A stretch of 13,368 bases of DNA from Candidatus Methylomirabilota bacterium (GCA_046726415.1 JBKPAK010000078.1:1-13368); one strand, 5' to 3'. Counted from the first letter of the stretch, positions 1-12,937 are shown. Made by a program: numbers and translations. Notes: generated by a model from the sequence alone, not told the origin.

Positions 1-179
1 GGAAAACGGGATTCGCGTAAACCCCTGCCGCCTTCTGGAGTGAGACATCGAGGGAGCGCGACATCGAGGGCACCGCGGCTTCGCCGCGGGTCCGGGAGTG
101 GCGGGGGCTTCCTCAGCTGACCGGGACGACGACTATGGGCCTCTCCGCAGCCTGAGTGTCGCCACACACGGAGGGACGC

Positions 180-1121
180 ATGCCGCGACTGACCGAGCAG
201 GACGTCATCAAGCTCATGGACACGCTCAGCAACTGGAGGCGGTGGGGTACTGACGACGAGCTGGGCACGATCAATCACGTCACGCCGGCCGTGCGGCGGC
301 GGGCCGCGGCGCTGGTGCGCGACGGCGTGTCGGTGACCTGCGCGCGGCCAATCGTGACGAACGATATCGCCGTGGATACCACGATCCAGCCGCTGCGCTT
401 CATGGTCGACAGCGGCGAGGGGCGCGATACGGACAGCAACGACCGCGTCCTCCAGCGCCGGGGCGCCGCCGAGTTCATCGGCATGGTGTTCCACGGCTAC
501 TCGATCACCCACGTGGACGCGCCGTCGCACTACTTCTGGCAGGGCCGCATGTACAACGGCCGCTCCTGCAACCTCGTCACCTCGCGGGAGGGCGCGCAGG
601 CCGAGTCGGTGGACCTGTTGCGGGACGGCGTGGTGAGCCGTGGCGTGCTGCTCGACGTGGCCGCCGTCCGCGGCGGCGAGGTTCCGTCCGGCGAGGGCGT
701 GATGCCGGAGGACCTCGAGGCCGCCGAGCGCGCCCAGCAGGTCAAGGTGGAGCCCGGTGATGTCCTGCTGATCCGCACCGGCTACTACGCCCGCCGGCTG
801 CGCGAGCCGCGCCACCCCAGCCGCGACGGGTCTCCTGCCGCAGATGTGGCGTGTCTGCCCTGGTTCCACGAGCGCTCGATCGCTATGCTCGGCACCGACA
901 CCCACAACGACGTGAGCCCGCTACCATACCCGCGCCTGGGCAACGCACTCCATGTGGTGGCCCTGGTCGCCATGGGGCTCTGGCTCATCGACAATGCCAA
1001 CCTGGAAGAGCTGGCCCGCGCCTGCGCCGATCGCCGCCGGTGGGAGTTCCTGCTGACCATCGCGCCCTTGCGGCTCCAGCACACGACCGGCTCCCCGGTG
1101 AACCCGATTGCCGTGTTCTGA
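180..1121 (+). CDS. Cyclase family protein (kynurenine formamidase-like metal-dependent hydrolase), 313 aa
   Basis: N-terminal NWRRWGTDDELGTIN, metal-binding motif HGYSITHVDAPSH, RGVLLDV, GDVLLIRTG, and C-terminal TGSPVNPIAVF are typical of the family. Start placed at ATG 180, behind GGAGGG at 170-175. Confidence 0.9.
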   Translation: MPRLTEQDVIKLMDTLSNWRRWGTDDELGTINHVTPAVRRRAAALVRDGVSVTCARPIVTNDIAVDTTIQPLRFMVDSGEGRDTDSNDRVLQRRGAAEFIGMVFHGYSITHVDAPSHYFWQGRMYNGRSCNLVTSREGAQAESVDLLRDGVVSRGVLLDVAAVRGGEVPSGEGVMPEDLEAAERAQQVKVEPGDVLLIRTGYYARRLREPRHPSRDGSPAADVACLPWFHERSIAMLGTDTHNDVSPLPYPRLGNALHVVALVAMGLWLIDNANLEELARACADRRRWEFLLTIAPLRLQHTTGSPVNPIAVF

Positions 1122-1212
1122 ACCGTGGCCGACGCCGCAGCCCACGGGCTCACGACTTGTGGGACACTTTCCGGTAGCCGGTGATCAGCTCTCGCGCACC
1201 AGGGAGATGCGG

Positions 1213-2118
1213 ATGACGTTCGCCCCGGACCACGACGTCCCGATCCCGTACATGCAGCGCACGCGCGACTACTATCAGGCGCTCGGCTACCCCCCCTATC
1301 GCTGGGCGCACTTCGCCGACGTTCCTTTCACGCCCCTGAAGGCGCCTCTGGCGCAGGCGCGGGTGGCCCTGATCACGACGGCCGCGCCGTACCAGCCCGG
1401 TGTCGGCGACCAGGGGCCGGGGGCGAAGTACAACGCCGCCGCCAAGTTCTACAAGGTCTACTCCGACGGGACGGACACCGCGCCCGATCTGCGCATCTCG
1501 CACGTCGGCTATGACCGCGTCCACACCACCGCCGAGGATCCCAGGACCTGGTTTCCCCTGGCCCGACTTCACGATTTCGTGAAAGCGGGACGCATCGGCG
1601 CGCTCACGCCGCGGTTCCACGGCGCCCCGACGAACCGGAGCCACCGGGTGACGATGGAAACGGACGCGCCAGAACTCCTCCGCCGCTGCCGAGAAGACGG
1701 CGCAGACGTGGCGGTGCTCGTCCCCACCTGACCGGTGTGTCACCAGACCGTGAGTCTGGCGGCCAGGTATCTCGAGGCGAACGGGATCCCCACCGTGATC
1801 ATGGGATGTACAAAGGACATCGTGGAGTACTGCGGCGTCCCGCGCTTCCTGTTCAGCGACTTTCCCCTCGGCAACGCCGCCGGGCGCCCGTTCGACGTCG
1901 AATCGCAGACGGTCACCTTGGAGCTCGCGCTGCGCGTGCTGGAGAGCGCGCCCGCCGGGCGGACCACGGTACAGTCGCCGCTGCGGTGGCGTGACGACCC
2001 CTCGTGGAAGCTCGACTTCTCGAACCTCGACAAGCTGACGCCGGAGGAGATCGCCGAGCGGCGCAAGGAGTTCGACGCCGTCAAGGCTGTGGCCAAGGCG
2101 AAGCGCGAGGAAGCATGA
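1213..2118 (+). CDS. Glycine/sarcosine/betaine/D-proline reductase selenoprotein B family protein (GrdB/PrdB-like), 301 aa, predicted selenocysteine at codon 173 (TGA 1729-1731)
   Basis: ORFs 1108..1731 and 1735..2118 share a frame and are joined as GTC CCC ACC TGA CCG GTG TGT CAC CAG ACC = VPT-U-PVCHQT. Upstream motifs PFTPLKAPLAQARVALITTA, ISHVGYD, FPLARL, GRIG and downstream LEANGIPTV, GVPR, FPLG span the whole family domain. RBS AGGGAG at 1201-1206 favours ATG 1213 (ATG 1207 is an alternative). Confidence 0.85.
1732..1767 (+). promoter_or_regulatory. Candidate bacterial SECIS element
   Basis: CCAGAC (1743-1748) pairs with GTCTGG (1754-1759) around loop CGTGA. The loop follows 17 nt after the UGA and has G then U at loop positions 2-3, consistent with the bacterial SECIS consensus. 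The lower stem is imperfect. Confidence 0.65.
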
Positions 2119-3308
2119 GCAAGCCCTTCGCCGGCGTCCGGATCCTCGACTTCACCCGGTACCTCGCGGGCCCGTACGGCACCTACCAGCTGGCGCTCCT
2201 CGGCGCCGATGTCGTGAAGATCGAGTCGCGCGACGGCGACGAGACGCGCAGCCAGCTTGTCTCAAAGGAATGGGCCGAGCGGAAGATGCCGCCGTCGTTC
2301 CTGGCGGTGAACGGCAACAAGCGCAGCATCACGCTCGACCTCCGGCGGCCGGAGGCCGTGGAGGTCATCACGCGGCTGGTCACCAAGGCCGACGTGGTCT
2401 GGGAGAACTTCCGCCCGGGGGTCATGGACAAGCTCGGGGTTGGCTATGAGGCGCTCGCCGCGGTCAACCCGCGCCTCGTCTACTGCGCGGTCTCCGGCTT
2501 CGGCCACACGGGACCAGAGCGAACCACCGCCGCCTTCGACGGCAAGCTGCAGGCCATGTCCGGCATCATGTCCATCACCGGCGAGCCCGCCGGCGGCCCG
2601 ATGCGCGCCGGATTCGCGATCTGCGACACCATCGGCGGCATGACGGCGGCGCTCGCCGTGGCGAGCGCGCTCTACCAGCGCACGCACACCGGTCGCGGGC
2701 AGTTCGTGGACGTGGCCATGCTCGATGCGGCGCTGGCCTTCATCCCCGGCCCAGTCTCCGAGTACACCGTGGCCGGCATCGAACAGCGGCAGATCGGCAA
2801 CGGCTCGGTGAGCCGCAAGCCGACGGCCAGTCGCTTCCGGGCGAAAGACGGCTTCATCGTCCTGGCGGTGCTGACCGAGAAGCAGTTCGCAGGCCTCATG
2901 CGCACGATCGGGCGGGCCGACGCCCTCGACGATCCGCGCTTCAAGGACTGGGCGGCGCGGACGGACAACGTGGCGGCGCTGCGCGAGGTCATCGAGACCG
3001 CACTGGCCACCGACGATCCGAAGACTTGGGAGGCGCGGCTGACGGCGGCGGACGTCCCATGCGCCTGCATCTGGAAGATCGATGAGATCGTGCAGCATCC
3101 GCAGCTCGAGCACCGCGACGTGTTGCAGACCGTCGACTCGCGCTACGGCCCGCTGCGGCTGGTGGGGGCGGGCTTCCGGCTCGCCCACGGCAGCCCGGGC
3201 ATCGACCGGCCGCCGCCGACGCTCGGCGAGCACACCGACGAGATCCTCGCCGAAGCGGGCTACGCCCCCGCGGAGATCGAGCGCCTGCACCGCGACGCGA
3301 TCATCTGA
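2115..3308 (+). CDS. Class III CoA-transferase (CaiB/BaiF family), 397 aa
   Basis: GVRILDFTRYLAGP, LGADVVKIE, NGNKRSITLDL, ADVVWENFRPG, NPRLVYCAVSGFG, catalytic-type Asp in ICDTIGG, TGRGQFVD, PPTLGEHT. The start ATG overlaps the upstream stop (ATGA 2115-2118). Confidence 0.95.
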   Translation: MSKPFAGVRILDFTRYLAGPYGTYQLALLGADVVKIESRDGDETRSQLVSKEWAERKMPPSFLAVNGNKRSITLDLRRPEAVEVITRLVTKADVVWENFRPGVMDKLGVGYEALAAVNPRLVYCAVSGFGHTGPERTTAAFDGKLQAMSGIMSITGEPAGGPMRAGFAICDTIGGMTAALAVASALYQRTHTGRGQFVDVAMLDAALAFIPGPVSEYTVAGIEQRQIGNGSVSRKPTASRFRAKDGFIVLAVLTEKQFAGLMRTIGRADALDDPRFKDWAARTDNVAALREVIETALATDDPKTWEARLTAADVPCACIWKIDEIVQHPQLEHRDVLQTVDSRYGPLRLVGAGFRLAHGSPGIDRPPPTLGEHTDEILAEAGYAPAEIERLHRDAII

Positions 3309-3375
3309 GCCTCAGGTCCTGATACGCGCTCAGCTGAGCCTCAGGTCCTCGTGCCCGGTCATCTGAGCTTCAGAT
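3305..3375. repeat. Three palindromic CTGAGC(C/T)TCAG boxes at 29-bp periodicity
   Basis: CTGAGCCTCAGGTCCT at 3305-3320 and 3334-3349; CTGAGCTTCAG at 3363-3373, within ATCTGA-GCT-TCAGAT (3361-3375). Confidence 0.8.
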
Positions 3376-3502
3376 TCCCGTGCGGTGAGACAAACGGATG
3401 GCCCGCGATGGTCGGGGCACCTCCGGTCGACGCCCGTCCTGCCGAATCGGAGGACGCGGGGCTGGGTGTATGCTCGTCCGCACCGTTTTCGGGGGTGGCG
3501 CC

Positions 3503-4747
3503 ATGGACGACGTGAAGCAGCAGCTCGCGCGGTGGATCGACGAGGATCGCGACACGATCATCCAGTTCTTGTGCGAGTTCGTTCGCGCCAAGAGCCCGAA
3601 CCCTCCGGGCGACACCACGCTGGCGGCCGGGCACGTCACGCGTTTCCTCGAGATGCACAGGCTACCGTTCCAAGTGGTCGCGCCGCAACCCACCATGCCG
3701 AACATCGTCGGCTCCTTCGAGGGAGCGAAGCCTGGTCGGCACCTGGTGCTGAACGGTCACATGGACGTCTTTCCCGCCGACGAGGCGAACGAGCGCTGGA
3801 CGCATGGTCCGTGGAGTGGGGCGATCGCCGAAGGCAAGATCTATGGCCGCGGCGTGGCCGACATGAAGGCGGGAACGTCCGCTTCCATCTTCACCTACTA
3901 CTATCTGTACCGGGTCCGTCAGCATCTGAAGGGGAAGCTGACCTTGACCGCCGTCTCCGACGAGGAGACATTCGGGCCGTGGGGGGCGCGGTACTTGATG
4001 GATCATGCCGACGTCCACGGCGACTGCCTGCTGAACGGTGAGCCGAGTAGTCCCCTGACCATTCGCTTCGGCGAGAAGGGACCGCTCTGGCTGAAGTTCA
4101 CCGTGCGAACCAAGGGGGCACACGGCGCTTATACGCATCTGTCGCCGAGCGCGACGAAACTCGCGGCAAAGCTGATCCTCGATCTGGAGGATCTGACCGC
4201 GCTGGAGCCATCGGTGCCCATCGAGGTCGCCGACGCCCTCGCCGGCGCCGCGGCGGCCATCGACGAGGCGCAAGGCCCCGGGGCGAAGGACATCGTGCAG
4301 CGGGTCACGGTGAACATCGGCATCATCCAGGGCGGCCAGAAGGTGAACATGGTTCCCGCCACGTGCTGGTTCGAGGCCGACGTGCGTCTGCCGCCCGGCC
4401 TGGGACGGGACGAGGTGATGGCCGCGCTACGCCGGATCCTCGGCCGCTATCCCGAGGCGACCATGGAAGAGATCAACTACAGCGCGCCGAGCGCCTGCGA
4501 CCCCAATCACGAGATGGTCGGCATCGTGCGCGCCAACGCGCAGGCCTTCGGCCGGCCCGCCCCGGCGCCGATCGTGAGTCTGGGCGGTACTGACGCCCGC
4601 CTGTGGCGCCATCGCGGGATCCCCGCGTTCGTCCACGGGCCGTTCCCGCGCGGCATGGCCCAGGCGGACGAGCACGTCGAGATCGAGGAGTACCTACACA
4701 TCGTTCGCATGCACGTGCTGTCGGCGTCCGACTACCTGTCGCGCTGA
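3503..4747 (+). CDS. M20 family metallo-hydrolase (ArgE/DapE-like deacylase), 414 aa
   Basis: SPNPPG, LNGHMDV, GRGVADMKAG, SDEE, GEPS, GEKG, GAHG, VNIGIIQGG, GGTDAR, DEHV. Start set at ATG 3503; the longer N-terminus in the ORF track looks non-coding. Confidence 0.9.
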   Translation: MDDVKQQLARWIDEDRDTIIQFLCEFVRAKSPNPPGDTTLAAGHVTRFLEMHRLPFQVVAPQPTMPNIVGSFEGAKPGRHLVLNGHMDVFPADEANERWTHGPWSGAIAEGKIYGRGVADMKAGTSASIFTYYYLYRVRQHLKGKLTLTAVSDEETFGPWGARYLMDHADVHGDCLLNGEPSSPLTIRFGEKGPLWLKFTVRTKGAHGAYTHLSPSATKLAAKLILDLEDLTALEPSVPIEVADALAGAAAAIDEAQGPGAKDIVQRVTVNIGIIQGGQKVNMVPATCWFEADVRLPPGLGRDEVMAALRRILGRYPEATMEEINYSAPSACDPNHEMVGIVRANAQAFGRPAPAPIVSLGGTDARLWRHRGIPAFVHGPFPRGMAQADEHVEIEEYLHIVRMHVLSASDYLSR

Positions 4748-4860: not shown

Positions 4861-6123
4861 TCATACCAGGCCGATGTCCTGTGCCTCCGTGTGCGGGAAC
4901 ACCTTGTCGAGCCTCGCGTTGTCGAGCCCGTACAGTCGCTTGAACAGGCCGCCGAGCATGGCGCGGTATTCGGTCAACACCGGCCAGTCCCGGTTCTGGT
5001 TCAGGGTGCGGCGCTCGACCGCGATCTGTTCGCCGGCGATGCGTCCGCCGCGGATGACGCCACCGAGCGCCCAGTAGACGGTGCCGTGGCCATGGTCGGT
5101 GCCGCGCGTGCCGTTTTCGCGGAAGGTGCGGCCGAACTCCGAGATGACCACGACGACGGTGTTGTTCCACAGCGGCCCCATCTGCTGGGCGAAGGCGGCG
5201 AGCCCCTGACCGAGGTTGCCGAGGAGATTGGCGAGTTGGCCCTGCGCGCTGCCTTCGTTGACGTGCGTATCCCACCCGCCGACATCGATGAAGGCGAGGT
5301 TGAACTTGTCGCGCATCAGCCCGGCCATCCGGCGCGCCTCGACTTCGAAGCCGCGCGCGCTGAGCGCACTGCGGTTGGCCGCCTGCATCTCCCCGTTGGT
5401 GCTGCCCGAGGCCATCATCTCGCCTTGCTGGGCGACCGTCCGGCGCAGCTCGAAGCCTTCGCTGATCAGGGGCTCGAAGCGCGTCCCCGCATACATGTCG
5501 GCCAGGAGCGCCATCTGTCGTTCGTCGAACGGCGCGCGGGCGGTGCCCTTGAGCGACACGTTGGGGACCACGACGTCACCGGTCATGGCGATCGGCAACC
5601 CGTCGGTGAAGGCCACGGGCGCCGCGGCCCCGCCGAGCACGGCGGCCAGCCGATTCATGAAACCCGATCCGTAGGCCTTCTGGCCCCCGCGCTCGACGGC
5701 CAGGGGAAGTCCGCCCTCGACGCTGTCCTGCGTCTCGAAGTGGCTGCGACTTAGGTCCCTCGTCCCGGCAAAGGTCACGAACGCAACCCGGCCTTCTCGC
5801 CAGAGGGGATAGATGCTGTCCTTCAGGGCGGGGTGCAGCCCCCACATGACCGCCTCGCCCGGCCGCGCGAGTGGTAGAGCGGTGTTCGGGTTGTTCGGAT
5901 CGGGTTTGGGCACCGCGAGGGTCGGCCGCGCCTCGTAGTAGAACGGGCTGCCCACCGGGATCACTGCATTGGCCGCATCGTAGCCGCCGCGCAGGAACAC
6001 CAGCAGGAATTTGATGTCCGCCGCCTCCGGCGCGGCGTAGGCGCGCGACACCACATGAGGGGTGGCGCCGATCGCGTGGGCGGCGCCGAACAGCGCGACC
6101 TTGAGGACGACGCGTCGCTCCAT
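4861..6123 (-). CDS. DUF1501 domain-containing protein with probable Tat signal peptide, 420 aa
   Basis: FLRGGYD, WGLHPAL, SRSHFETQD, GGWDTHVNE, SEFGRTFRENGTRGTDHGHG are characteristic. N-terminus MERRVVLKVAL has a twin arginine; GAGGT lies upstream of ATG 6123. Confidence 0.88.
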   Translation of the reverse strand: MERRVVLKVALFGAAHAIGATPHVVSRAYAAPEAADIKFLLVFLRGGYDAANAVIPVGSPFYYEARPTLAVPKPDPNNPNTALPLARPGEAVMWGLHPALKDSIYPLWREGRVAFVTFAGTRDLSRSHFETQDSVEGGLPLAVERGGQKAYGSGFMNRLAAVLGGAAAPVAFTDGLPIAMTGDVVVPNVSLKGTARAPFDERQMALLADMYAGTRFEPLISEGFELRRTVAQQGEMMASGSTNGEMQAANRSALSARGFEVEARRMAGLMRDKFNLAFIDVGGWDTHVNEGSAQGQLANLLGNLGQGLAAFAQQMGPLWNNTVVVVISEFGRTFRENGTRGTDHGHGTVYWALGGVIRGGRIAGEQIAVERRTLNQNRDWPVLTEYRAMLGGLFKRLYGLDNARLDKVFPHTEAQDIGLV

Positions 6124-6137
6124 GACCACCTCGTTCT

Positions 6138-7712
6138 TCAACGCTGCATCCAGTCCGGCGAGGCGAGCAATATGGTGTTCCACTCCTGCTGGGAGGCCGT
6201 CTGCGCGAGGGCCTCGCGCGTGCGGGCGCTCAGCGTGGGCTCGATCGCCTCGTAGAACAGCCGGTTGTTCAGCATGGGGAAGCCCGTGCGCGGGCCGGGC
6301 CGGTTGTCCTCGGTGTTGAACAGCCCCGCGCTGCCGCTGCCGATCGCGCGGGCGATCTCGAAGCGTTTCACCATCTGGCCCGAACTCGCCCAGGCCGTTT
6401 CGACCAGCGCGTAGCCATCGGGTGTCACCCGCCCATACAGCGGCTCACCGAGCTGACTGAGCCAGCCGACCACCGGTCGATAGTTGCTGATGGTCTTGCC
6501 GTCGTAGGCCAGCCGCAGCGACGAGACGACGAACTGCATCGGATCCTTGAATTTGCCGGGGCCGGCCTCCGCGCCGCTCAGCACCGCGGCGAATTCGCGC
6601 GCGGCGAACATCGTGCGCAGCACCGCCGCCACGTCGCCGTCGGTGCGCTGAAACGCCTCGGCCATGGCCTCGACCAGGGCCGGGGAAGGATCGTCGGCGA
6701 CGAAATAGGTGGCGATCTTGCGGCTGATGAAGCGGGCGGTAGCGGGCTGCCGGCACAGGAGCACCACCGCCTCCTCGACTTCCCCGAACCCCGCTCCCGC
6801 GATGCGCTGGTTCAGGACGGTCTTGGTGCCGAAGTCGTGGCGGTTGGGGTTGAACTCGAACAGACCCTCGCGCACATAGAGCGGCTGACGGGCCGGGGCG
6901 AGCTTCGGGATATCGCCCGTGACATTGATGCCGACCCCGGTGAGCACCCGGGCCAGCTCCTGGACGTCCTGCTGTGAGTAGCGCGAGCCGCTGAGGCCCC
7001 CGCTGATGCCGAGCGTGTGCAGCTCCATCAACTCGCGCGCGTAGTTTTCGTTGATGCGCCCGGCCGCGCTCTGGGCGTTGTCGAGATACTCGAGCATGGC
7101 CGGCGCCGTCGCCGTGGCCAGGACGAGCTCGCGGAACCGGCCAAGCGCGCGGGGCCGCACGGCGCGCTCCTCGTAGTCGGCCAGCGTCCAGCGCACCCCG
7201 GCTTTGCCGGAGAACACGCTGAAGTGATTCATCCAGAACCACGTCATCTGTTCGCGCAGCTGGGCCGGCGAGTAGAGCGCGCGCATCAGATGGCGCTTGG
7301 CGGTCTCGTAGCTTGCCTGATTGGCCGCCTGGTTCTGCTGCTTGCGCGCTTGCTGCTTGTCGTCCTGGCTCGGCAGGGCGTTGATGCGCTGCTGCTCGGC
7401 GCGCGCGGTGCGCAGCAGTCGCTCGGCGGTCTGCTGGGTGACGGGAATCGCGGCGATCGCCGCGGCCAGATCGGGCGGATCCTGCGCAGGGGGGTTCAGC
7501 TGCTCATCGAAAAACCGCGCTCGGCCCAGTTGGCGGTAGCGCGCGACGGTCGCGCCGTCGACGCCGAACGCAACGCGGTTGAGCCAGCGCAGATCGTCCT
7601 GAGTGAGCGGGCGCGGCGCGCGATCCGAGCTGGTCGGGCCGGTAGCGCACGCCACGAGCACCAGGGACAGCGCCGGGAGCCAGGTCCGAGTGCCGAGGGC
7701 AATTCGCATCAT
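6138..7712 (-). CDS. DUF1800 domain-containing protein, probable lipoprotein, about 524 aa
   Basis: QLREQMTWFWMNHFSV, PAMLEYLDN, INENYARELMELHTLG, YSQQDVQELARVLTG, GKFKDP, PDGY, ASPDWMQR. Lipobox-like LVAC follows a hydrophobic stretch. Start is ATG 7712 or 7709. Confidence 0.9.
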   Translation of the reverse strand: MMRIALGTRTWLPALSLVLVACATGPTSSDRAPRPLTQDDLRWLNRVAFGVDGATVARYRQLGRARFFDEQLNPPAQDPPDLAAAIAAIPVTQQTAERLLRTARAEQQRINALPSQDDKQQARKQQNQAANQASYETAKRHLMRALYSPAQLREQMTWFWMNHFSVFSGKAGVRWTLADYEERAVRPRALGRFRELVLATATAPAMLEYLDNAQSAAGRINENYARELMELHTLGISGGLSGSRYSQQDVQELARVLTGVGINVTGDIPKLAPARQPLYVREGLFEFNPNRHDFGTKTVLNQRIAGAGFGEVEEAVVLLCRQPATARFISRKIATYFVADDPSPALVEAMAEAFQRTDGDVAAVLRTMFAAREFAAVLSGAEAGPGKFKDPMQFVVSSLRLAYDGKTISNYRPVVGWLSQLGEPLYGRVTPDGYALVETAWASSGQMVKRFEIARAIGSGSAGLFNTEDNRPGPRTGFPMLNNRLFYEAIEPTLSARTREALAQTASQQEWNTILLASPDWMQR

Positions 7713-7954
7713 CCAGTGTGGCCGTCGCGGGCGGGGCGAGGACGCGTCCCGCACCGTTCCCGGCGCCCTGGCTCCCACAGGGCGGGGAACGTCGGCCGGA
7801 TCGATCGTGCGCCGGTGCGCATGGCCTGTCAAGGCCCGCGAGCAATGCCGGCGGCGCGCCGCCCAGTCTGGCGATCCCCTCGGCGCCGGGCCTCTGGTTG
7901 CAGAGGCACCTTCGCGATAAGCTTCGGCCACGTCTATCGCCGAGGAGCTGACCC

Positions 7955-8842
7955 ATGAACGTCTCCATCCGCCAGATCCACCCTGTGTTCGTGGGCGAGG
8001 TATCCGGGATCGACATCGCCGGACCGCTCGCACGCGAGGAGGTGGCGGCCATCGAGGCGGGGATGGATCGCCACGCCGTGCTCGTGTTTCGCGACCAGAA
8101 GATCACCGATGAGCAGCAGATGGCGTTCAGCCGCAACTTCGGCGCCCTGGAGGACGCCCGCGGCGGTACCATCACCAAGCCCGAGGACAAGCGACTCCGA
8201 GTGGGCATGAACGACGTCTCCAATCTCGGCCAGGATGGCCAGCCCCTCGCTCGCGCCTCCCGCCAGCGCGTGTTCAACCTGGGCAACATGCTCTGGCACT
8301 CGGACAGCTCGTTCCGGGTGATCCCCGCCAAGTATTCCCTGCTATCGCCGCGCGTGGTGAATCCGACGGGTGGGAATACCGAGTTCGCGGACATGCGCGC
8401 GGCCTATGATGCCCTCGACGCGGATGTGAAGGCGCAGATCGAGGACTTCGTGTGCGAGCACTCGCTGATGCACTCGCGTGGCTCGCTCGGCATGCTCGAT
8501 TACTCGGAAGAGGAGCGGGCGATGTTCCGGCCGGTTCGCCAGCGGCTCGTGCGGACGCACCCCGTGACCGGCCGCAAGTCGCTGTACCTCTCCTCGCATG
8601 CCGGCGGCATCATCGGCGTGCCGATGCCGGAGGCTCGAATCCTGTTGCGGGACCTTACCGAGCATGCCACCCAGCCGAAGTTCGTCTATGTCCACCGCTG
8701 GCGCCCGTGGGATCTCGTCATGTGGGACAACCGGCAGATGATGCACCGCACGCGCCGCTATGACGAGAGCCAGCCGCGCGATATGCGACGCACCACGGTC
8801 GCGGGAGACGCGCCCACCGCGGCCCAGGTCGAGGCGGCGTAG
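7955..8842 (+). CDS. TauD/TfdA family Fe(II)/2-oxoglutarate dioxygenase (TfdA-like), 295 aa
   Basis: HAVLVFRDQ, facial triad WHSDSSF ... MHR, GGNTEFAD, HPVTGRKSLY, WDNR, RDMRRTT. RBS GAGGAG upstream. Confidence 0.92.
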   Translation: MNVSIRQIHPVFVGEVSGIDIAGPLAREEVAAIEAGMDRHAVLVFRDQKITDEQQMAFSRNFGALEDARGGTITKPEDKRLRVGMNDVSNLGQDGQPLARASRQRVFNLGNMLWHSDSSFRVIPAKYSLLSPRVVNPTGGNTEFADMRAAYDALDADVKAQIEDFVCEHSLMHSRGSLGMLDYSEEERAMFRPVRQRLVRTHPVTGRKSLYLSSHAGGIIGVPMPEARILLRDLTEHATQPKFVYVHRWRPWDLVMWDNRQMMHRTRRYDESQPRDMRRTTVAGDAPTAAQVEAA

Positions 8843-8857: not shown

Positions 8858-9646
8858 ATGATGACCACTGGCCGCCTGGCCGGCCGCGTGGCCATCGTCA
8901 CCGGCGCCGCCCACGGCATTGGTCGCGCCATCGGGGTGGCGCTCGTGGCGGATGGTGCCACCGTCTGGGCCTGCGACGTGCGCGAGCCCGAGCTTGCGGC
9001 GACCGGGCGCGCCTTGGAGGAGGCCGGGGGCGTCGCGGGCAAGACCGCTCGCGTCGACATCGCCGATCCCGGCCAGATTGCCGAGTTCGTCGAGCGCGTC
9101 GCGGCGGCGGATGGAGACGCCGAGATCCTCGTCAACTGCGCGGGCGGAGTGGCCGGCCAGGCGGGCCGCCCCGTCGAGGAGGTGAGCGACGAGGACTGGT
9201 ACGGCATCTTCCGCGTCAACGTCGATGCGACCTTTCGCTTCACGCGGGCCGTCGTCCTCGGCATGAAGCGCCGTGGCCGGGGCGCGATCGTCAATATCTC
9301 ATCGGGCGCTGGCCGCTCGTACAGCCGCACCGGCATCCAGGCCTACGCGAGCGCCAAGGCCGCGGTCATCGGCTTCACGCGCCAGACGGCGCGCGAGCTG
9401 GGGCGCTTCGGCATCCGCGTCAACTCGGTGGCGCCCGGCTTCGTGCTCTCGAATCCGGCCACCGAGCGGCAGTGGGCGGCCATGGGCGATGATGGCCAGC
9501 GCGAGCTGCTCGACTCGATCGCGCTCGGCCGCGTGGGTCAGCCGCAGGAGATCGCGAGCGTGGTGGCATTCCTGGTGTCGGACGGCGCGTCCTACGTCAC
9601 CGGGCAGACCCTCAGCGCCGACGGCGGCCACTGGATGCTGGGGTAG
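8858..9646 (+). CDS. Short-chain dehydrogenase/reductase (classical SDR), 262 aa
   Basis: TGAAHGIG cofactor motif, VNCAG, NISS, catalytic YASAK, GIRVNSVAPG, YVTGQTLSADGG. It lies 15 nt after the dioxygenase stop, so the two are likely co-transcribed. Confidence 0.93.
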   Translation: MMTTGRLAGRVAIVTGAAHGIGRAIGVALVADGATVWACDVREPELAATGRALEEAGGVAGKTARVDIADPGQIAEFVERVAAADGDAEILVNCAGGVAGQAGRPVEEVSDEDWYGIFRVNVDATFRFTRAVVLGMKRRGRGAIVNISSGAGRSYSRTGIQAYASAKAAVIGFTRQTARELGRFGIRVNSVAPGFVLSNPATERQWAAMGDDGQRELLDSIALGRVGQPQEIASVVAFLVSDGASYVTGQTLSADGGHWMLG

Positions 9647-9690: not shown

Positions 9691-10473
9691 CTAGCGCTCT
9701 CTCAGCACCGGGTTGCGCAACACGCCGATGCGGGGGATCTCCACCTCGACCACGTCACCATCCTTCATGTTCTCCGTCGCACCGTCGGTGCCCATCCACA
9801 GCACGTCACCCGGGTACAAGGTCAAGTATTGGCTCATGCGGCTGATGAACTGGCGCACGCCGAAGATCGCGTCCTTGACGGCGTAGGAGAACATCTCCTG
9901 GCCATTGAGCCGGATGGTGACCCGGAGATCGTCGGGATCGAGGCCGGTGACGATCCACGGACCCATCGGCTTGAAGGTGTCCGTGTTCTTTCCCCGCCAG
10001 AACGTCCGGTCACCGCGCTGCCAGGTTCGCTCGCTGACGTCATTGCCGATCGTGTAGCCGAAGACGTAGTCGAGCGCCTCGGCCTCCGAGACCCGCTTGC
10101 ACCGCCGGCCGATCACCGCGACTAGTTCCCCTTCGTACTGAACCTGCTCCGTGGCGTCCTTGGGGATGACGATGGGCTCGTCAGTCGCGACCAGCGCATT
10201 GTTGGCGCGGTAGCCGACGTCGGCGTGCGGCGGAAACTCCGGCTTCACGCCCCGGCGGTGGGCCATCTCGGTCACGTGCTCCCGGTAGTTGACGCCGGCG
10301 GCATAGAAGGTGGGGGGAATCACCGGCACGAGCAACTTGACCCGACTCAGCGGGAAGGTCGTCGCGGTCTGCCGATGCTCCTCGAAAGGACTCCCCGTGA
10401 CTTCGGTCACGGTGTTGTCCTCGATGACGCCGTACGCGGCGTTCCGCCCTGATTGAAACCGGCACCATTTCAT
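9691..10473 (-). CDS. Fumarylacetoacetate hydrolase family protein, 260 aa
   Basis: GVNYREH, YEGELVAVIG, GYTIGNDVSERTWQ, GKNTDTFKPMGPWI, TLYPGDVLWMGT, IGVLRNPV. The start overlaps the upstream hydrolase stop (10470-10473). Confidence 0.93.
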   Translation of the reverse strand: MKWCRFQSGRNAAYGVIEDNTVTEVTGSPFEEHRQTATTFPLSRVKLLVPVIPPTFYAAGVNYREHVTEMAHRRGVKPEFPPHADVGYRANNALVATDEPIVIPKDATEQVQYEGELVAVIGRRCKRVSEAEALDYVFGYTIGNDVSERTWQRGDRTFWRGKNTDTFKPMGPWIVTGLDPDDLRVTIRLNGQEMFSYAVKDAIFGVRQFISRMSQYLTLYPGDVLWMGTDGATENMKDGDVVEVEIPRIGVLRNPVLRER

Positions 10474-11252
10474 GGCCGATGCTCCTTGAGAAAACCGCCC
10501 ACTTCGCGGTTGAACACGTGAGGACGCTCGAAGTACGTCGAGTGGCCGGCGGCCTCGACGCGCACGAGGCGTGAGCCCGGGACCTGCTCGTGGACCTTCT
10601 TCGACAGCTCGGGCCAGGTAAGTCCGTCCTCGTCACTGGTCAGGAAGAGCGTCGGTACCCGGGCGGCGGCGTAGCGTTCCACGGGTGTGGTCAGGCGGCC
10701 AAGATGATCGCGGAAGTCGGCGGGCAGCGGCGCGTTCGTGCCGGCGATTTGAGCGTAGAGGAAGGCTCGGACCGGCTGCTCCTTGCGGAAGGTCTCGCCC
10801 AAGGCCGCGTGCCACAGCACGGCCGGCCGGGGTGGACTCGTCGCGCCGAGCTGCCGGCGCAGCTCGGCGATCTCGAGATTGGTGAGGTTGCCGACCGTGT
10901 TTGCCATCACGACCGCCCAGAATCGCTCGGGCACCCGCACGACGGCGCCCACGGCGGCCCAGCCGCCCATCGACTGTGCGACCAGAGCCGCCTTCGCGAT
11001 CCCCAGGTGATCGAGCAACGCGATCGCGTCGGTCGCGAGCGCGGCGGGACCCGGCCCGCCCGCCACGTCCGGGGACTGGCCGAAGGCACGCTGGTCCACC
11101 GTGATGCACCGGTACTCCTCGGCGAACACGGGCACCTGCTGCCACCAGCTCAGATGGTTGCCGCCGGCGCCGTGCAGAAACAGCAGCGTGGGCGCGGTGC
11201 CGCCGGTGTCCTCGTAGTAGAGGCGAAAGCCGCTCTGCTCCATAAAAGGCAT
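10470..11252 (-). CDS. Alpha/beta fold hydrolase, 260 aa
   Basis: LFLHGAGG oxyanion motif, DQRAFGQS, nucleophile elbow AQSMGG, acid in SDEDG, His in AAGHS. Start set at ATG 11252, behind GGGGGA. Confidence 0.9.
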   Translation of the reverse strand: MPFMEQSGFRLYYEDTGGTAPTLLFLHGAGGNHLSWWQQVPVFAEEYRCITVDQRAFGQSPDVAGGPGPAALATDAIALLDHLGIAKAALVAQSMGGWAAVGAVVRVPERFWAVVMANTVGNLTNLEIAELRRQLGATSPPRPAVLWHAALGETFRKEQPVRAFLYAQIAGTNAPLPADFRDHLGRLTTPVERYAAARVPTLFLTSDEDGLTWPELSKKVHEQVPGSRLVRVEAAGHSTYFERPHVFNREVGGFLKEHRP

Positions 11253-11256
11253 CGCG

Positions 11257-11508
11257 CTATCCCCCGACCACGCCGCAGATCGCCGCCTCGATGATCTCGA
11301 GGGGGCGGTCGATCTCGGCGCGGAAAATGTTGACATCGACCTCGCCGCGTCGCCTGCCAACACCATACGCCGAGTCGGGGTCGGCCGGCGAGACCTTGCC
11401 GAGGCCCACGCCGCGCAGCGCGAGCCGGATCGCCGCCCAGGATCGCATCGAATCCGACGGGCGGGCAGCCTCGTGAGGCGGGCCGTACCGTGGGTGTTGA
11501 AGTTCCAT
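11257..11508 (-). pseudogene. Short ORF (83 aa) or C-terminal gene remnant upstream of the hydrolase
   Basis: The last about 60 codons are mostly G/C-ending and stop 4 nt before the hydrolase ATG. The tail NIFRAEIDRPLEIIEAAI resembles by eye the last helix of class III PLP aminotransferases. The 5' boundary is uncertain. Confidence 0.3.
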
Positions 11509-11616
11509 GACCAAGGCTTCGCCCGGGATGTTCCCCAACGCAGGCGTATACTCGGCCCCGCGCCAGGGTGGGCCGGTGCCGTCGATCATGACATCAGGGC
11601 ACGGGAGGGAGCGACC

Positions 11617-12711
11617 ATGAATACGCCACACGCGATCTCCGCGTTGATTCACGATCGACTGGGCCGGACCTTGAGCGATGTATTTGCGGCGAACGGAACG
11701 ACCGGCGACATCTTCAGCATCCGCCTGGAGCCGGGAGACACTCTGTTGGGCCAGCTGGAAGCGACCGACGATGGTCCACCGAGAGTCACCCTCGAGCTGG
11801 TCCTGGACGTCATCGACAGTTCCCTCTCGACGTTGCCGGATGTCCTCGAGCGGGGCGTGCGAGCGCCTGGCGAGTTCCTGCGGAACGCGCGCAACCTTCT
11901 GAGGGACCGGCTGGTCTTTTTCGGCCAGCATACCGACGACATTGCCACCCTGGTGGCCGCCGAGGATCCGGCCAGCATCCGCCGCGCCGGCGACGCGCTG
12001 TTCACGAGAATCGACGCCGCCTTCGGACGGACGGACCGGAGCGACGTATTCCAGAGTATGGGTCAATGGCTGAGGCTACGGCCATTCATCGGAGGTGACA
12101 TCGGCACGGTCCTGCCATTGGCCACCCTCGTCAGCGCGGTACAGGGCCGTCTCGAGAATGCCATTCGCGTACCGCAGAGCATCGAGCTAGGGCTGCTCGA
12201 CTATTTCTTCAAGAGCAGTGGATTCCGGACTGTTGACGGGGCGAGCGTGGTCGCCCCCGTACACCTCTCGCACCTCGGGAACGCGCGGTCAGGCCGGGGT
12301 TCTGAACTGTCGAACGATCCGGCCGGGCTTCGACCGCTCACGGGCTTCATCGCGAAGGCGACCGCTGAGCACTACATACGGGACATCACCCGGGTCATCG
12401 TGGAGAGCGCGTACGATGCGGGACGCGGGCTGCGCGCGCGATTCGACGACATCGCGCCGCGGTTGAGGCGCCGCAAGCCCGATCAGGGGGCGCAGGCCGC
12501 GATCGTGGAGAAGTTCGTGGCGTGGTTCAGAGGCTTTTCGGCCATGGCGGAGTCGGGAACGATGCGGGCCGTCGAGGTGGCGACGCAGGGAGTGTCGCAA
12601 TTTCAGACCAACCCCCTGATCGCCGCCGCGTCGGGCTCTTTCGCGGGCACCGTGGCTCGCAAACTCGCGCAGGATTCCTTCCTGGCCGTGTTGCGCTCCG
12701 AGCTGGACTAG
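11617..12711 (+). CDS. Hypothetical protein, 364 aa, no family recognised
   Basis: Strong RBS (GGGAGGGAG) before ATG 11617, long open frame with natural amphipathic-helix-like composition, TAG at 12709-12711. Confidence 0.7.
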   Translation: MNTPHAISALIHDRLGRTLSDVFAANGTTGDIFSIRLEPGDTLLGQLEATDDGPPRVTLELVLDVIDSSLSTLPDVLERGVRAPGEFLRNARNLLRDRLVFFGQHTDDIATLVAAEDPASIRRAGDALFTRIDAAFGRTDRSDVFQSMGQWLRLRPFIGGDIGTVLPLATLVSAVQGRLENAIRVPQSIELGLLDYFFKSSGFRTVDGASVVAPVHLSHLGNARSGRGSELSNDPAGLRPLTGFIAKATAEHYIRDITRVIVESAYDAGRGLRARFDDIAPRLRRRKPDQGAQAAIVEKFVAWFRGFSAMAESGTMRAVEVATQGVSQFQTNPLIAAASGSFAGTVARKLAQDSFLAVLRSELD

Positions 12712-12717
12712 CCGAGG

Positions 12718-12937
12718 ATCTGCGGTGCGCGCCCACTGCGGGTTCTTCCTATCCGGCGAGAACCCCAGCTGCGGGTTCTTCCGCATCCTGCGAGAGCCCA
12801 ACCCGCAGGTTCGTCGATATCCTGCGAGAGCCCAACCCGCAGGTTCGTCGATACCCTGCGGGAGCCCAACCCGCAGGTTCGTCGATATCCTGCGAGAGCC
12901 CAACCCGCAGGTTCGTTCCTCCGAGGGCCCAACCGGC
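12718..12937. repeat. Tandem array of a 34-bp hairpin-forming unit (4 near-identical and about 3 degenerate copies)
   Basis: Unit ATCCTGCGAGAGCCCAACCCGCAGGTTCGTCGAT starts at 12785, 12819, 12853 (2 substitutions) and 12887 (truncated at 12916). Degenerate copies start at 12718, 12751 and 12917. Internal inverted repeat CCTGCG...CGCAGG. Confidence 0.93.

Follow-up and report, generated by a model that had tools for sequence, protein, structure and literature searches.

A short PrdB/GrdB-like selenoprotein gene coupled to a family III CoA-transferase gene: a possible two-gene module acting on CoA esters

The B subunits of the Stickland reductases are the closest characterised relatives of the protein described here. 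Characterised members of this family use a selenocysteine (Sec), with a cysteine nearby, to break a bond at the carbon that bears a carboxyl group. Resolution of the selenoether in glycine reductase has to await the formation of a thioester on protein C. We analyzed a 13,368-nucleotide (nt) stretch of DNA from Candidatus Methylomirabilota bacterium (contig C78, referred to as the window), in which a PrdB/GrdB-like gene with an in-frame TGA (positions 1213–2118, plus strand) runs into a gene for a family III coenzyme A (CoA)-transferase (2115–3308, plus strand). We put at about one half the probability that the two genes form a module, in which the transferase would supply a CoA thioester and the Sec/Cys-Cys redox enzyme would transform it.

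Short proteins of this type were catalogued as "proline reductase PrdB, UxxC" by Zhang, Fomenko and Gladyshev in 2005, with 42 Sec genes from the Sargasso Sea (PMC1088965), and by Zhang and Gladyshev in 2008, with 235 Sec and 110 Cys homologues in Global Ocean Sampling data (PMC2398784). Selenoprotein B homologues are some of the commonest selenoproteins in oxic ocean waters. The environmental family shares with the window gene the pfam07355 match, the Sec/Cys exchange in UxxC and the oxic habitats, and the passages that treat it discuss no Grd or Prd partners. Those passages assign no function to the orphan form, contain no analysis of neighbouring genes and mention neither a CoA-transferase pairing nor fusions to ligases or kinases (PMC1088965, PMC2398784). 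In a 2026 review, the part on these models names only glycine reductase B and D-proline reductase (PMC13188914). The selenoprotein family is already known, whereas the literature that we could search, supplementary files aside, describes neither the pairing with a CoA-transferase nor the fusions to ligases and kinases. Publications on Rokubacteria and selenocysteine, judged by title or abstract, included none about the pairing. An initial annotation of the window had proposed a stand-alone reductase-B selenoprotein working on acyl-CoA with the transferase, and had linked it to a cyclase-family hydrolase and a dioxygenase nearby; that interpretation is partly supported by our analysis.

The selenoprotein and its family

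The frame that begins at 1207 or 1213 and ends at 2118 is open when the TGA at 1729–1731 (plus strand) is read as Sec, and it then encodes TUPVCHQ, giving the redox motif U175-P-V-C178-H-Q. Translation from the ATG at 1213 yields 301 amino acids (aa), and from the alternative ATG at 1207 it yields 303. A Shine-Dalgarno-like AGGGAG (1201–1206, plus strand) lies 6 nt ahead of ATG 1213, and orthologues start with MTFA or MTLA at the ATG matching this position. Of 115 homologous loci, 38 have TGA in the Sec column and 77 have a Cys codon there. In our first set, composed of close relatives of the selenoprotein (36 loci for the neighbour search and 34 for the Sec column), the corresponding counts were 14 and 20 of 34, with the frame conserved on both sides of the column. 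Residues C178, H179 and Q180 are invariant in the 35 sequences aligned.

A SECIS (selenocysteine insertion sequence)-like hairpin, CACCAGAC-CGUGA-GUCUGGCG, occupies positions 1741–1761 (plus strand), with a core stem CCAGAC/GUCUGG (1743–1748 and 1754–1759) and the loop CGUGA. It starts twelve nt past the UGA, at the spacing expected of bacterial SECIS elements. The six core pairs are complete in 32 of the 38 Sec forms versus 2 of the 77 Cys forms, and the rare AGT Ser codon that forms the 3' arm of the stem is used by 34 of the 38 Sec forms versus 5 of the 77 Cys forms. The case for the hairpin is this comparison of Sec with Cys forms, since the whole 62-nt stretch past the UGA folds no better than its shuffles (z −0.15). 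The genome encodes selA, selB, selD and one tRNA-Sec; selB, selA and the tRNA-Sec gene lie together on contig C313, and the selD gene itself contains a TGA. The Sec/Cys column, the Sec-specific hairpin and the Sec machinery establish that 1213–2118 is a genuine selenoprotein gene, as the initial annotation had it. One family member (P0177, 294 aa) has Arg in place of Sec or Cys (YRPVCHQ); because CGA is one base from TGA, a Sec codon may have been miscalled or have mutated here.

Relative to GrdB, the protein represents the C-terminal half, extended by about 40 residues at each end. It matches the GRDB family PF07355 with 28.2 bits (cut-off 22), residues 34–174 aligning with profile positions 209–347. 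The best curated model is TIGR04483 (PrdB), with 94.2 bits over residues 41–262, under its cut-off of 300; the scores for TIGR01918 (37.7 bits, cut-off 65.45) and TIGR01917 (40.3 bits, cut-off 602) were also too low for assignment. A word-indexed search, in which all 8000 scored candidates were returned, gave at least 8000 homologues, mostly of about 310 aa, and an exhaustive search of 50%-identity representatives gave 1734 clusters at E 0.001 or better. Protein clusters retrieved with a natural Cys homologue (P0021) bear only the automatic name glycine reductase. Judged by similarity, the window gene encodes a short relative of PrdB and GrdB, of about 300 aa, and is a member of the environmental "PrdB" UxxC family as defined in Table 2 of PMC2398784: it shows the similarity to pfam07355, the UxxC motif with Sec/Cys pairs and the SECIS element past the UGA.

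With PrdB of D-proline reductase, the protein shares the short form without the N-terminal half of GrdB and the Sec in UxxC. It differs from PrdB in its score far under 300, in the additional residues at both ends and in the motif UPVCHQ, and no PrdA proprotein, PrdC or proline racemase gene lies alongside. The C-terminal domain is also homologous to that of GrdB, GrdF and GrdH (TIGR01917, TIGR01918), and U175-PV-C178 aligns exactly with U-GT-C of the full-length GrdB of the same genome, Sec with Sec. Unlike these proteins, it lacks the N-terminal half of about 200 aa, is only 25% identical (over 178 aa) to GrdB of its own genome and is not encoded beside GrdE, GrdA or GrdC/D.

A confident AlphaFold2 model based on 35 sequences (predicted local distance difference test, pLDDT, 92.3; predicted TM-score, pTM, 0.91) places U175 between a strand (168–172) and a helix (176–191), at the helix N-terminus. 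A predicted UxxC in this position is typical of redox proteins and would suit a general thiol/selenol oxidoreductase for disulfides, persulfides or peroxides (e.g., CoA mixed disulfides or CoA persulfide), which would tend CoA thiols and take no part in acyl chemistry. The predicted fold, however, is not thioredoxin-like, and the nearest characterised relatives are substrate-cleaving B proteins. Solved structures gave no functional hint, because no close relative was found among them: a sequence search of the PDB with the selenoprotein returned 0 hits, Foldseek found no PDB match at E 0.001 or better, and a wide VIA-align search gave only generic Rossmann/LacI/SDR-like three-layer alpha/beta matches with Z of 8.7 or less. 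We return to this explanation, which we regard as unlikely, with the evidence from neighbouring genes and fusions.

Pairing with a family III CoA-transferase

The stop of the selenoprotein gene and the start of the transferase gene overlap in an ATGA (2115–2118, plus strand) with GAGGAA ahead at 2107–2112, an arrangement of translational coupling. The transferase (397 aa) matches PF02515 with 386.4 bits over profile positions 2–366 of 366, and Asp171, presumably the catalytic Asp of family III CoA-transferases, is invariant in 29 partner transferase sequences. No NCBIfam equivalog was reached. All seven matches lay under their cut-offs, including the models for succinate–glutarate, formyl-CoA, oxalate, mesaconate and carnitine CoA-transferases; the best was succinate–glutarate CoA-transferase (NF052585), with 280.8 against 750 bits.

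Within the first set, the transferase followed in all 10 Rokubacteria-type loci with downstream DNA and in none of the 24 loci from Proteobacteria or Chloroflexi. The pairing therefore looked lineage-specific, but a second, alignment-based search changed the picture. It yielded at least 557 loci in species-representative genomes, of which the best 80 were kept. Loci with at least 400 nt downstream were considered evaluable (113 among the window and 114 loci). In 51 of these 113, the next gene downstream on the same strand is a family III transferase gene; 26 of the 51 are Sec and 25 Cys forms. The gap between the two genes is 0–202 nt in 50 of the 51 paired loci and 0–12 nt in 21. Such a recurrence is beyond chance, given that PF02515 genes are ∼0.5% of the genes in the host genome (about 30 full-length among roughly 7000; 42 matches with fragments), yet the same neighbour is found in 51 of 113 loci. 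The CaiB/BaiF-type partner noted in the initial annotation is thus a recurrent one, conserved in other genomes. In the reciprocal search, a PrdB-like gene lies upstream of all 7 relatives that share at least 76% identity with the window transferase, of 1 of 2 with upstream DNA at 51–67% identity, and of 0 of 69 under 50% identity.

A maximum-likelihood tree of 120 rows was calculated by a quick search, one locus having been dropped for an internal stop. The transferase-linked loci fall into several groups with good support on this tree: Rokubacteria (20/20), a Bradyrhizobium clade (17/17), an alphaproteobacterial Sec clade (6/7), Belnapia/Acetobacteraceae (3/3) and the clade of locus L100 (4/5), whose unlinked member (L138) has a gene for an AMP-binding acyl-CoA ligase directly upstream. 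The linked/unlinked label changes at least seven times on the tree, four changes being forced by starred branches, versus about 39 when labels are shuffled. The flanks outside the pair are unrelated between clades and vary among the Rokubacteria loci. Genes for Sua5, FAD-oxidase, GNAT and NUDIX proteins stand on one side of the pair and SRAP on the other in Bradyrhizobium, type VI secretion genes in L083 and L097, and a luciferase-like oxygenase and an MFS transporter in Belnapia. In five alphaproteobacterial loci, the PrdB-like gene is 68–70% identical to that of the window, whereas the transferase in the slot is only 31–34% identical and is of a different subtype.

These observations bear on the possibility that the adjacency means nothing for function and that a neutral pair has been inherited or transferred together. 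Co-inheritance would produce the co-variation seen between the identities of both genes to the window pair, which rise together (Spearman 0.75 over 46 loci), and the flanks are mostly unrelated housekeeping genes. We nonetheless consider a neutral pair very improbable. The pair has persisted in at least five clades while all the genes around it were exchanged, its transferase slot has been refilled by another subtype in the five loci just described, the gene order is reversed in remote relatives, and the family has independently been fused to acyl-CoA synthetases.

Remote relatives were obtained in a third search, seeded with representatives 31–39% identical to the window protein. The transferase gene is directly upstream in two Desulfobacterales metagenome-assembled genomes (MAGs) and one alphaproteobacterium (L230, L231, L234), and downstream in two Burkholderiales loci (L244, L300). 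In L235, L236 and L238, the gene directly downstream encodes an 818-aa protein with two CoA-transferase domains. No adjacent transferase was seen in L232, L233, L237 and L302, L233 being a 2-kb contig. The 818-aa tandem family III transferase (L235:5743–8196, L238:829–3282) has an NMT1-type ABC binding protein encoded upstream, and its two-domain layout seems to resemble that of the dimethylsulfoniopropionate enzyme DddD.

Within the phylum, no third conserved gene accompanies the pair: an M20 deacylase gene occurs in three loci, and genes for an amidase, a DehI-like protein, a thioesterase and a peptide-binding protein in two each. The DehI-like gene (haloacid dehalogenase family PF10778, 33 bits) starts 4 nt past the CoA-transferase gene in two Rokubacteria loci (L014:7103–7921, L016:4668–5486). 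Five alphaproteobacterial loci without a family III transferase (L081, L085, L124, L126, L034) have a DUF6134 gene downstream in common, and some of this subgroup also have genes for a pyridoxal phosphate enzyme, carboxyltransferase CT_C_D/CT_A_B and a family I CoA-transferase; L126 retains a 62-aa remnant resembling a family III transferase. Transcription has slight support: one soil metatranscriptome library contains short contigs matching the locus, the best of 217 nt at 1424–1640 with 99% identity (2 differences).

Fusions to activating enzymes and the proposed reaction

Natural fusions were surveyed among the 32 homologues longer than 531 aa. In 20 of these, a complete AMP-binding acyl-CoA synthetase is followed by the PrdB-like domain, in proteins of about 805–830 aa. 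Another four consist of the PrdB-like domain followed by a fructosamine-kinase/APH-type kinase domain, one is a GrdB-GrdE fusion, four have other architectures or no Pfam domain on record, and three carry PF02515. These last three (P0292, P0303, P0304) were rejected as transferase fusions, as their out-of-frame stretch marks a frameshifted read-through of adjacent genes. The ligase and kinase fusions are seamless in the alignment, with an intact NCPVCHQ motif, and the fused PrdB-like domains nest within the family on the tree. The ligase domains match generic acyl-CoA synthetase models only. The kinase fusions (P0276–P0279) form four 90%-identity clusters of about 655 aa, with the C-terminal domain fructosamine-kinase/APH/MTR-kinase-like. 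Transferase adjacency in several clades and phyla, together with the acyl-CoA synthetase fusions, upholds the link to CoA activation that the initial annotation had drawn.

The typical task of family III CoA-transferases is to move CoA from the product to the substrate of a second enzyme, one that acts on thioesters. The transferase loads CoA from the product in the cases of CaiB with carnitine dehydratase, of FldA and HadA with 2-hydroxyacyl-CoA dehydratases, and of BaiF; the second enzyme of such CoA-cycling pathways is a dehydratase or similar, and a module of two genes would suffice. To our knowledge, a Sec/Cys UxxC protein has not been described as the thioester-using enzyme in a pathway of this kind. 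In the reaction that we propose as the likeliest, the transferase would load a carboxylic acid onto CoA and probably also hand CoA from the product to fresh substrate. The Sec175 selenolate would then attack the carbon next to the thioester and displace a leaving group, for which an amine or onium, a sulfur group, a halide and phosphate are candidates. Attack of Cys178 on selenium would release the thioester enolate, and the reduced acyl-CoA would pass its CoA to the next substrate molecule. The Se-S bridge left on the enzyme would be reduced by thioredoxin or another cellular thiol system. The thioester would thereby take the role played in Stickland reductases by the pyruvoyl subunit (GrdE/PrdA) and protein C, in line with the suggestion of the initial annotation that it could stand in for pyruvoyl activation in a reductive cleavage of C-N or C-S bonds. 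Under the proposed mechanism two genes would suffice, and ligases or kinases, which activate the carbonyl or the leaving group, could replace the transferase. The CoA ester as substrate, the type of reaction, the reductant and the identity of the substrate are what we infer here.

A precedent comes from the betaine- and fluoroacetate-specific B proteins, which do not depend on proprotein cleavage; as their reaction involves no Schiff base, they can act without a pyruvoyl proprotein (PMC10838667). FarB/FarE and GrdH/GrdI break the C-X bond adjoining a carboxyl group in this way, and differ from the window pair in that they comprise GrdB-type and GrdE-type subunits, feed GrdA and protein C, and belong to strict anaerobes (PMC10838667). 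Where FarB and GrdH have a GrdE-type subunit, the window pair has a CoA-transferase.

A broader proposal covers the whole family. The [U/C]PVCHQ "marine PrdB" proteins may be new thiol/selenol-driven reductases of O2-respiring bacteria that, lacking a pyruvoyl subunit, reductively remove a substituent from the carbon adjoining an activated carbonyl. Activation would be interchangeable among an adjacent CoA-transferase, a fused AMP-forming ligase and a fused kinase, and the window pair would by itself carry out a minimal but complete Stickland-like half-reaction with a CoA ester as substrate. We offer this tentatively and consider it possible, although on balance doubtful.

Several observations weigh against a dedicated module with the transferase. 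No adjacent transferase is present in 62 of the 113 evaluable loci, so adjacency is not obligatory for the family, and two groups on the tree are entirely unlinked: Nitrobacteraceae (32/32), in a housekeeping neighbourhood, and an Anderseniella/gamma/Chloroflexi group (11/11). The locus fractions are not a census, as the second and third searches gave overlapping sets holding the best 80 loci per query, and branch support on the tree from the quick search is by the Shimodaira–Hasegawa-like approximate likelihood ratio test (SH-aLRT) only. The CoA-transferase III fold also includes racemases and isomerases, and the exact reaction of the transferase is for this reason not proven. In the flanks examined, no gene for a reductant (thioredoxin or similar) is conserved beside the pair, and flanking genes give no consistent clue to the substrate. 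In the soil library, no transcript contig bridges position 2115, parts of the locus being uncovered. Loose sulfur or onium hints occur in some flanks (TauE, TauD, rhodanese, sulfatase, an NMT1-type binding protein, GMC oxidoreductase); these are too inconsistent to build on.

Neighbouring genes and solitary occurrence are what the thiol/selenol oxidoreductase introduced above could claim in addition to its motif. A paralogue on contig C156 lies among AhpC/TSA, OsmC and sulfur-transport genes; TauE is found in the eight Anderseniella-group loci with a downstream gene-caller hit and in L074, rhodanese in five Bradyrhizobium loci and L300, and DsbA in three loci; and family members are often alone, in the 62 unpaired loci. 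The C-terminal position of the domain in fusions with complete acyl-CoA synthetases (20 clusters), and the tight translational coupling to the transferase, are hard to square with housekeeping thiol repair, which leaves this explanation unlikely in our judgment.

The same partners would also serve an enzyme whose residue 175, Sec or Cys, is acylated by acyl-CoA or acyl-AMP to give a seleno- or thioester; the protein would then be an acyltransferase, a thioesterase-like enzyme or a carrier with no net redox change. CoA-transferase, AMP-forming ligase and kinase all make activated acyl or phospho donors, and in L076 and L080 the pair borders directly on an acyl-CoA thioesterase gene. The invariance of C178 with H179 and Q180 is, however, what is expected of a resolving residue, and Sec/Cys exchange in UxxC is listed as a signature of redox selenoproteins in Table 3 of PMC1088965. 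An acyl acceptor is accordingly quite unlikely, and we prefer reductive cleavage on a CoA thioester.

PrdB-like homologues are, according to the present loci, also widespread in soil bacteria, and their genes are still annotated as proline or glycine reductase though the hosts often lack all the other components of those enzymes. The conserved partner and the natural acyl-CoA synthetase fusions make a family of "function unknown" concretely testable. If the proposal is right, selenium- or thiol-based reductive bond cleavage would extend from strict anaerobes to aerobes, and thousands of annotations would be corrected.

Canonical Grd genes and the rest of the window

The genome (7.6 Mb in 352 contigs) contains seven GrdB-like matches, six with an in-frame TGA. 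Four are full-length GrdB genes beside PF09338 (GrdE-type) genes, on contigs C21, C165, C9 and C172; C21 also bears a GrdC/D-like gene and the only GrdA found in the genome, which contains Sec. The initial annotation had pointed out that no such partners are in the window, and this stands: GrdA, GrdE/PrdA, GrdC/D and thioredoxin are absent from the 11 window open reading frames (ORFs) scanned. A genome-wide search did reveal the four GrdB-GrdE pairs and the one GrdA elsewhere. The window protein could then be an ordinary protein B subunit that teams up in trans with GrdA and a GrdE/PrdA proprotein and gives glycine reductase one more arm for a particular substrate, and a second Rokubacterium with the pair likewise has Grd genes. 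Three facts leave this only a slight chance. All four GrdE genes already adjoin a full-length GrdB of their own; the window protein lacks the N-terminal half and has the low identity to GrdB given above; and all 4 alphaproteobacterial genomes tested that carry an orthologous pair (two complete Bradyrhizobium genomes and two alphaproteobacterial chromosomes) lack any match to PF09338 or PF04723 (GrdA). In this sense the stand-alone character of the gene is supported. A full Grd set elsewhere in the genome, which the initial annotation had named as a refuting outcome, does exist, but it loses its force in view of the GrdB partner beside every GrdE gene and of the Grd-free genomes that carry the pair.

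The host is probably not a strict anaerobe, as its genome has at least four full-length genes for heme-copper oxidase subunit I. The earlier statement to this effect is also borne out by the Cys-form pairs in Bradyrhizobium and Belnapia. A glycine reductase system in such a probable aerobe is unusual. Of its Grd loci (L052–L055), one pair is beside a DAO-GCV_T gene (dimethylglycine/sarcosine oxidase-like) and two are beside peptide ABC transporter genes. The paralogue on C156 (C156:55437–56400; L050:7437–8400) is short, with the motif UPNC, and follows AhpC/TSA-like and OsmC-like ORFs. About 22 conserved residues past the TGA its similarity is lost, at the start of a gene for sulfur transport (PF04143); the paralogue may have been truncated or rearranged. 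Contig C49 (L051:2720–3592) has an N-terminal PrdB-like fragment that lacks the Sec codon and continues out of frame, close to a gene for a copper amine oxidase; it is probably a pseudogene.

The window has a GC content of 68%, and its nearest homologous loci are in MAGs of Candidatus Rokubacteria/Methylomirabilota. Gene calling by codon-position GC gave twelve genes, to which functions were assigned from Pfam and NCBIfam. An Rfam scan of the window matched no family, and a promoter and terminator scan of 1–3600 found nothing above shuffled sequence. The initial annotation was correct in all its statements of position: the 91-nt gap to the upstream cyclase gene, the ATGA at 2115–2118, the dioxygenase neighbour and the lack of Grd/Prd partners in the window. 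Two of the associations that it built on them did not survive. The cyclase-family protein (180–1121, stop at 1119–1121, plus strand; PF04199, 70.3 bits) was rejected as a third partner, tblastn finding a match in 0 of 36 and 0 of 80 loci. The TauD/TfdA dioxygenase gene (7955–8842, plus strand; 203 bits) recurs in only three other loci, and oppositely oriented genes intervene: a DUF1501 (4861–6183) and DUF1800 (6138–8033) pair on the minus strand sits between the selenoprotein operon and the TauD and short-chain dehydrogenase/reductase (SDR; 8858–9646, plus strand) genes.

An M20 ArgE/DapE-type deacylase gene (about 3503–4747, plus strand) follows the transferase gene; within the phylum it accompanies the pair now and then, in the window, L015 and L016. 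Beyond the SDR gene lie genes for a FAH-family hydrolase (9691–10473) and an alpha/beta hydrolase (10470–11366), both on the minus strand, and an ORF of 412 aa (11473–12711, plus strand) without a Pfam or NCBIfam match, whose GC at third codon positions (GC3, 0.79) is of the coding type. At the right end of the window, to which nothing else is assigned, a 34-base-pair unit is repeated in tandem in 5.2 copies with 88% matches (12741–12916).

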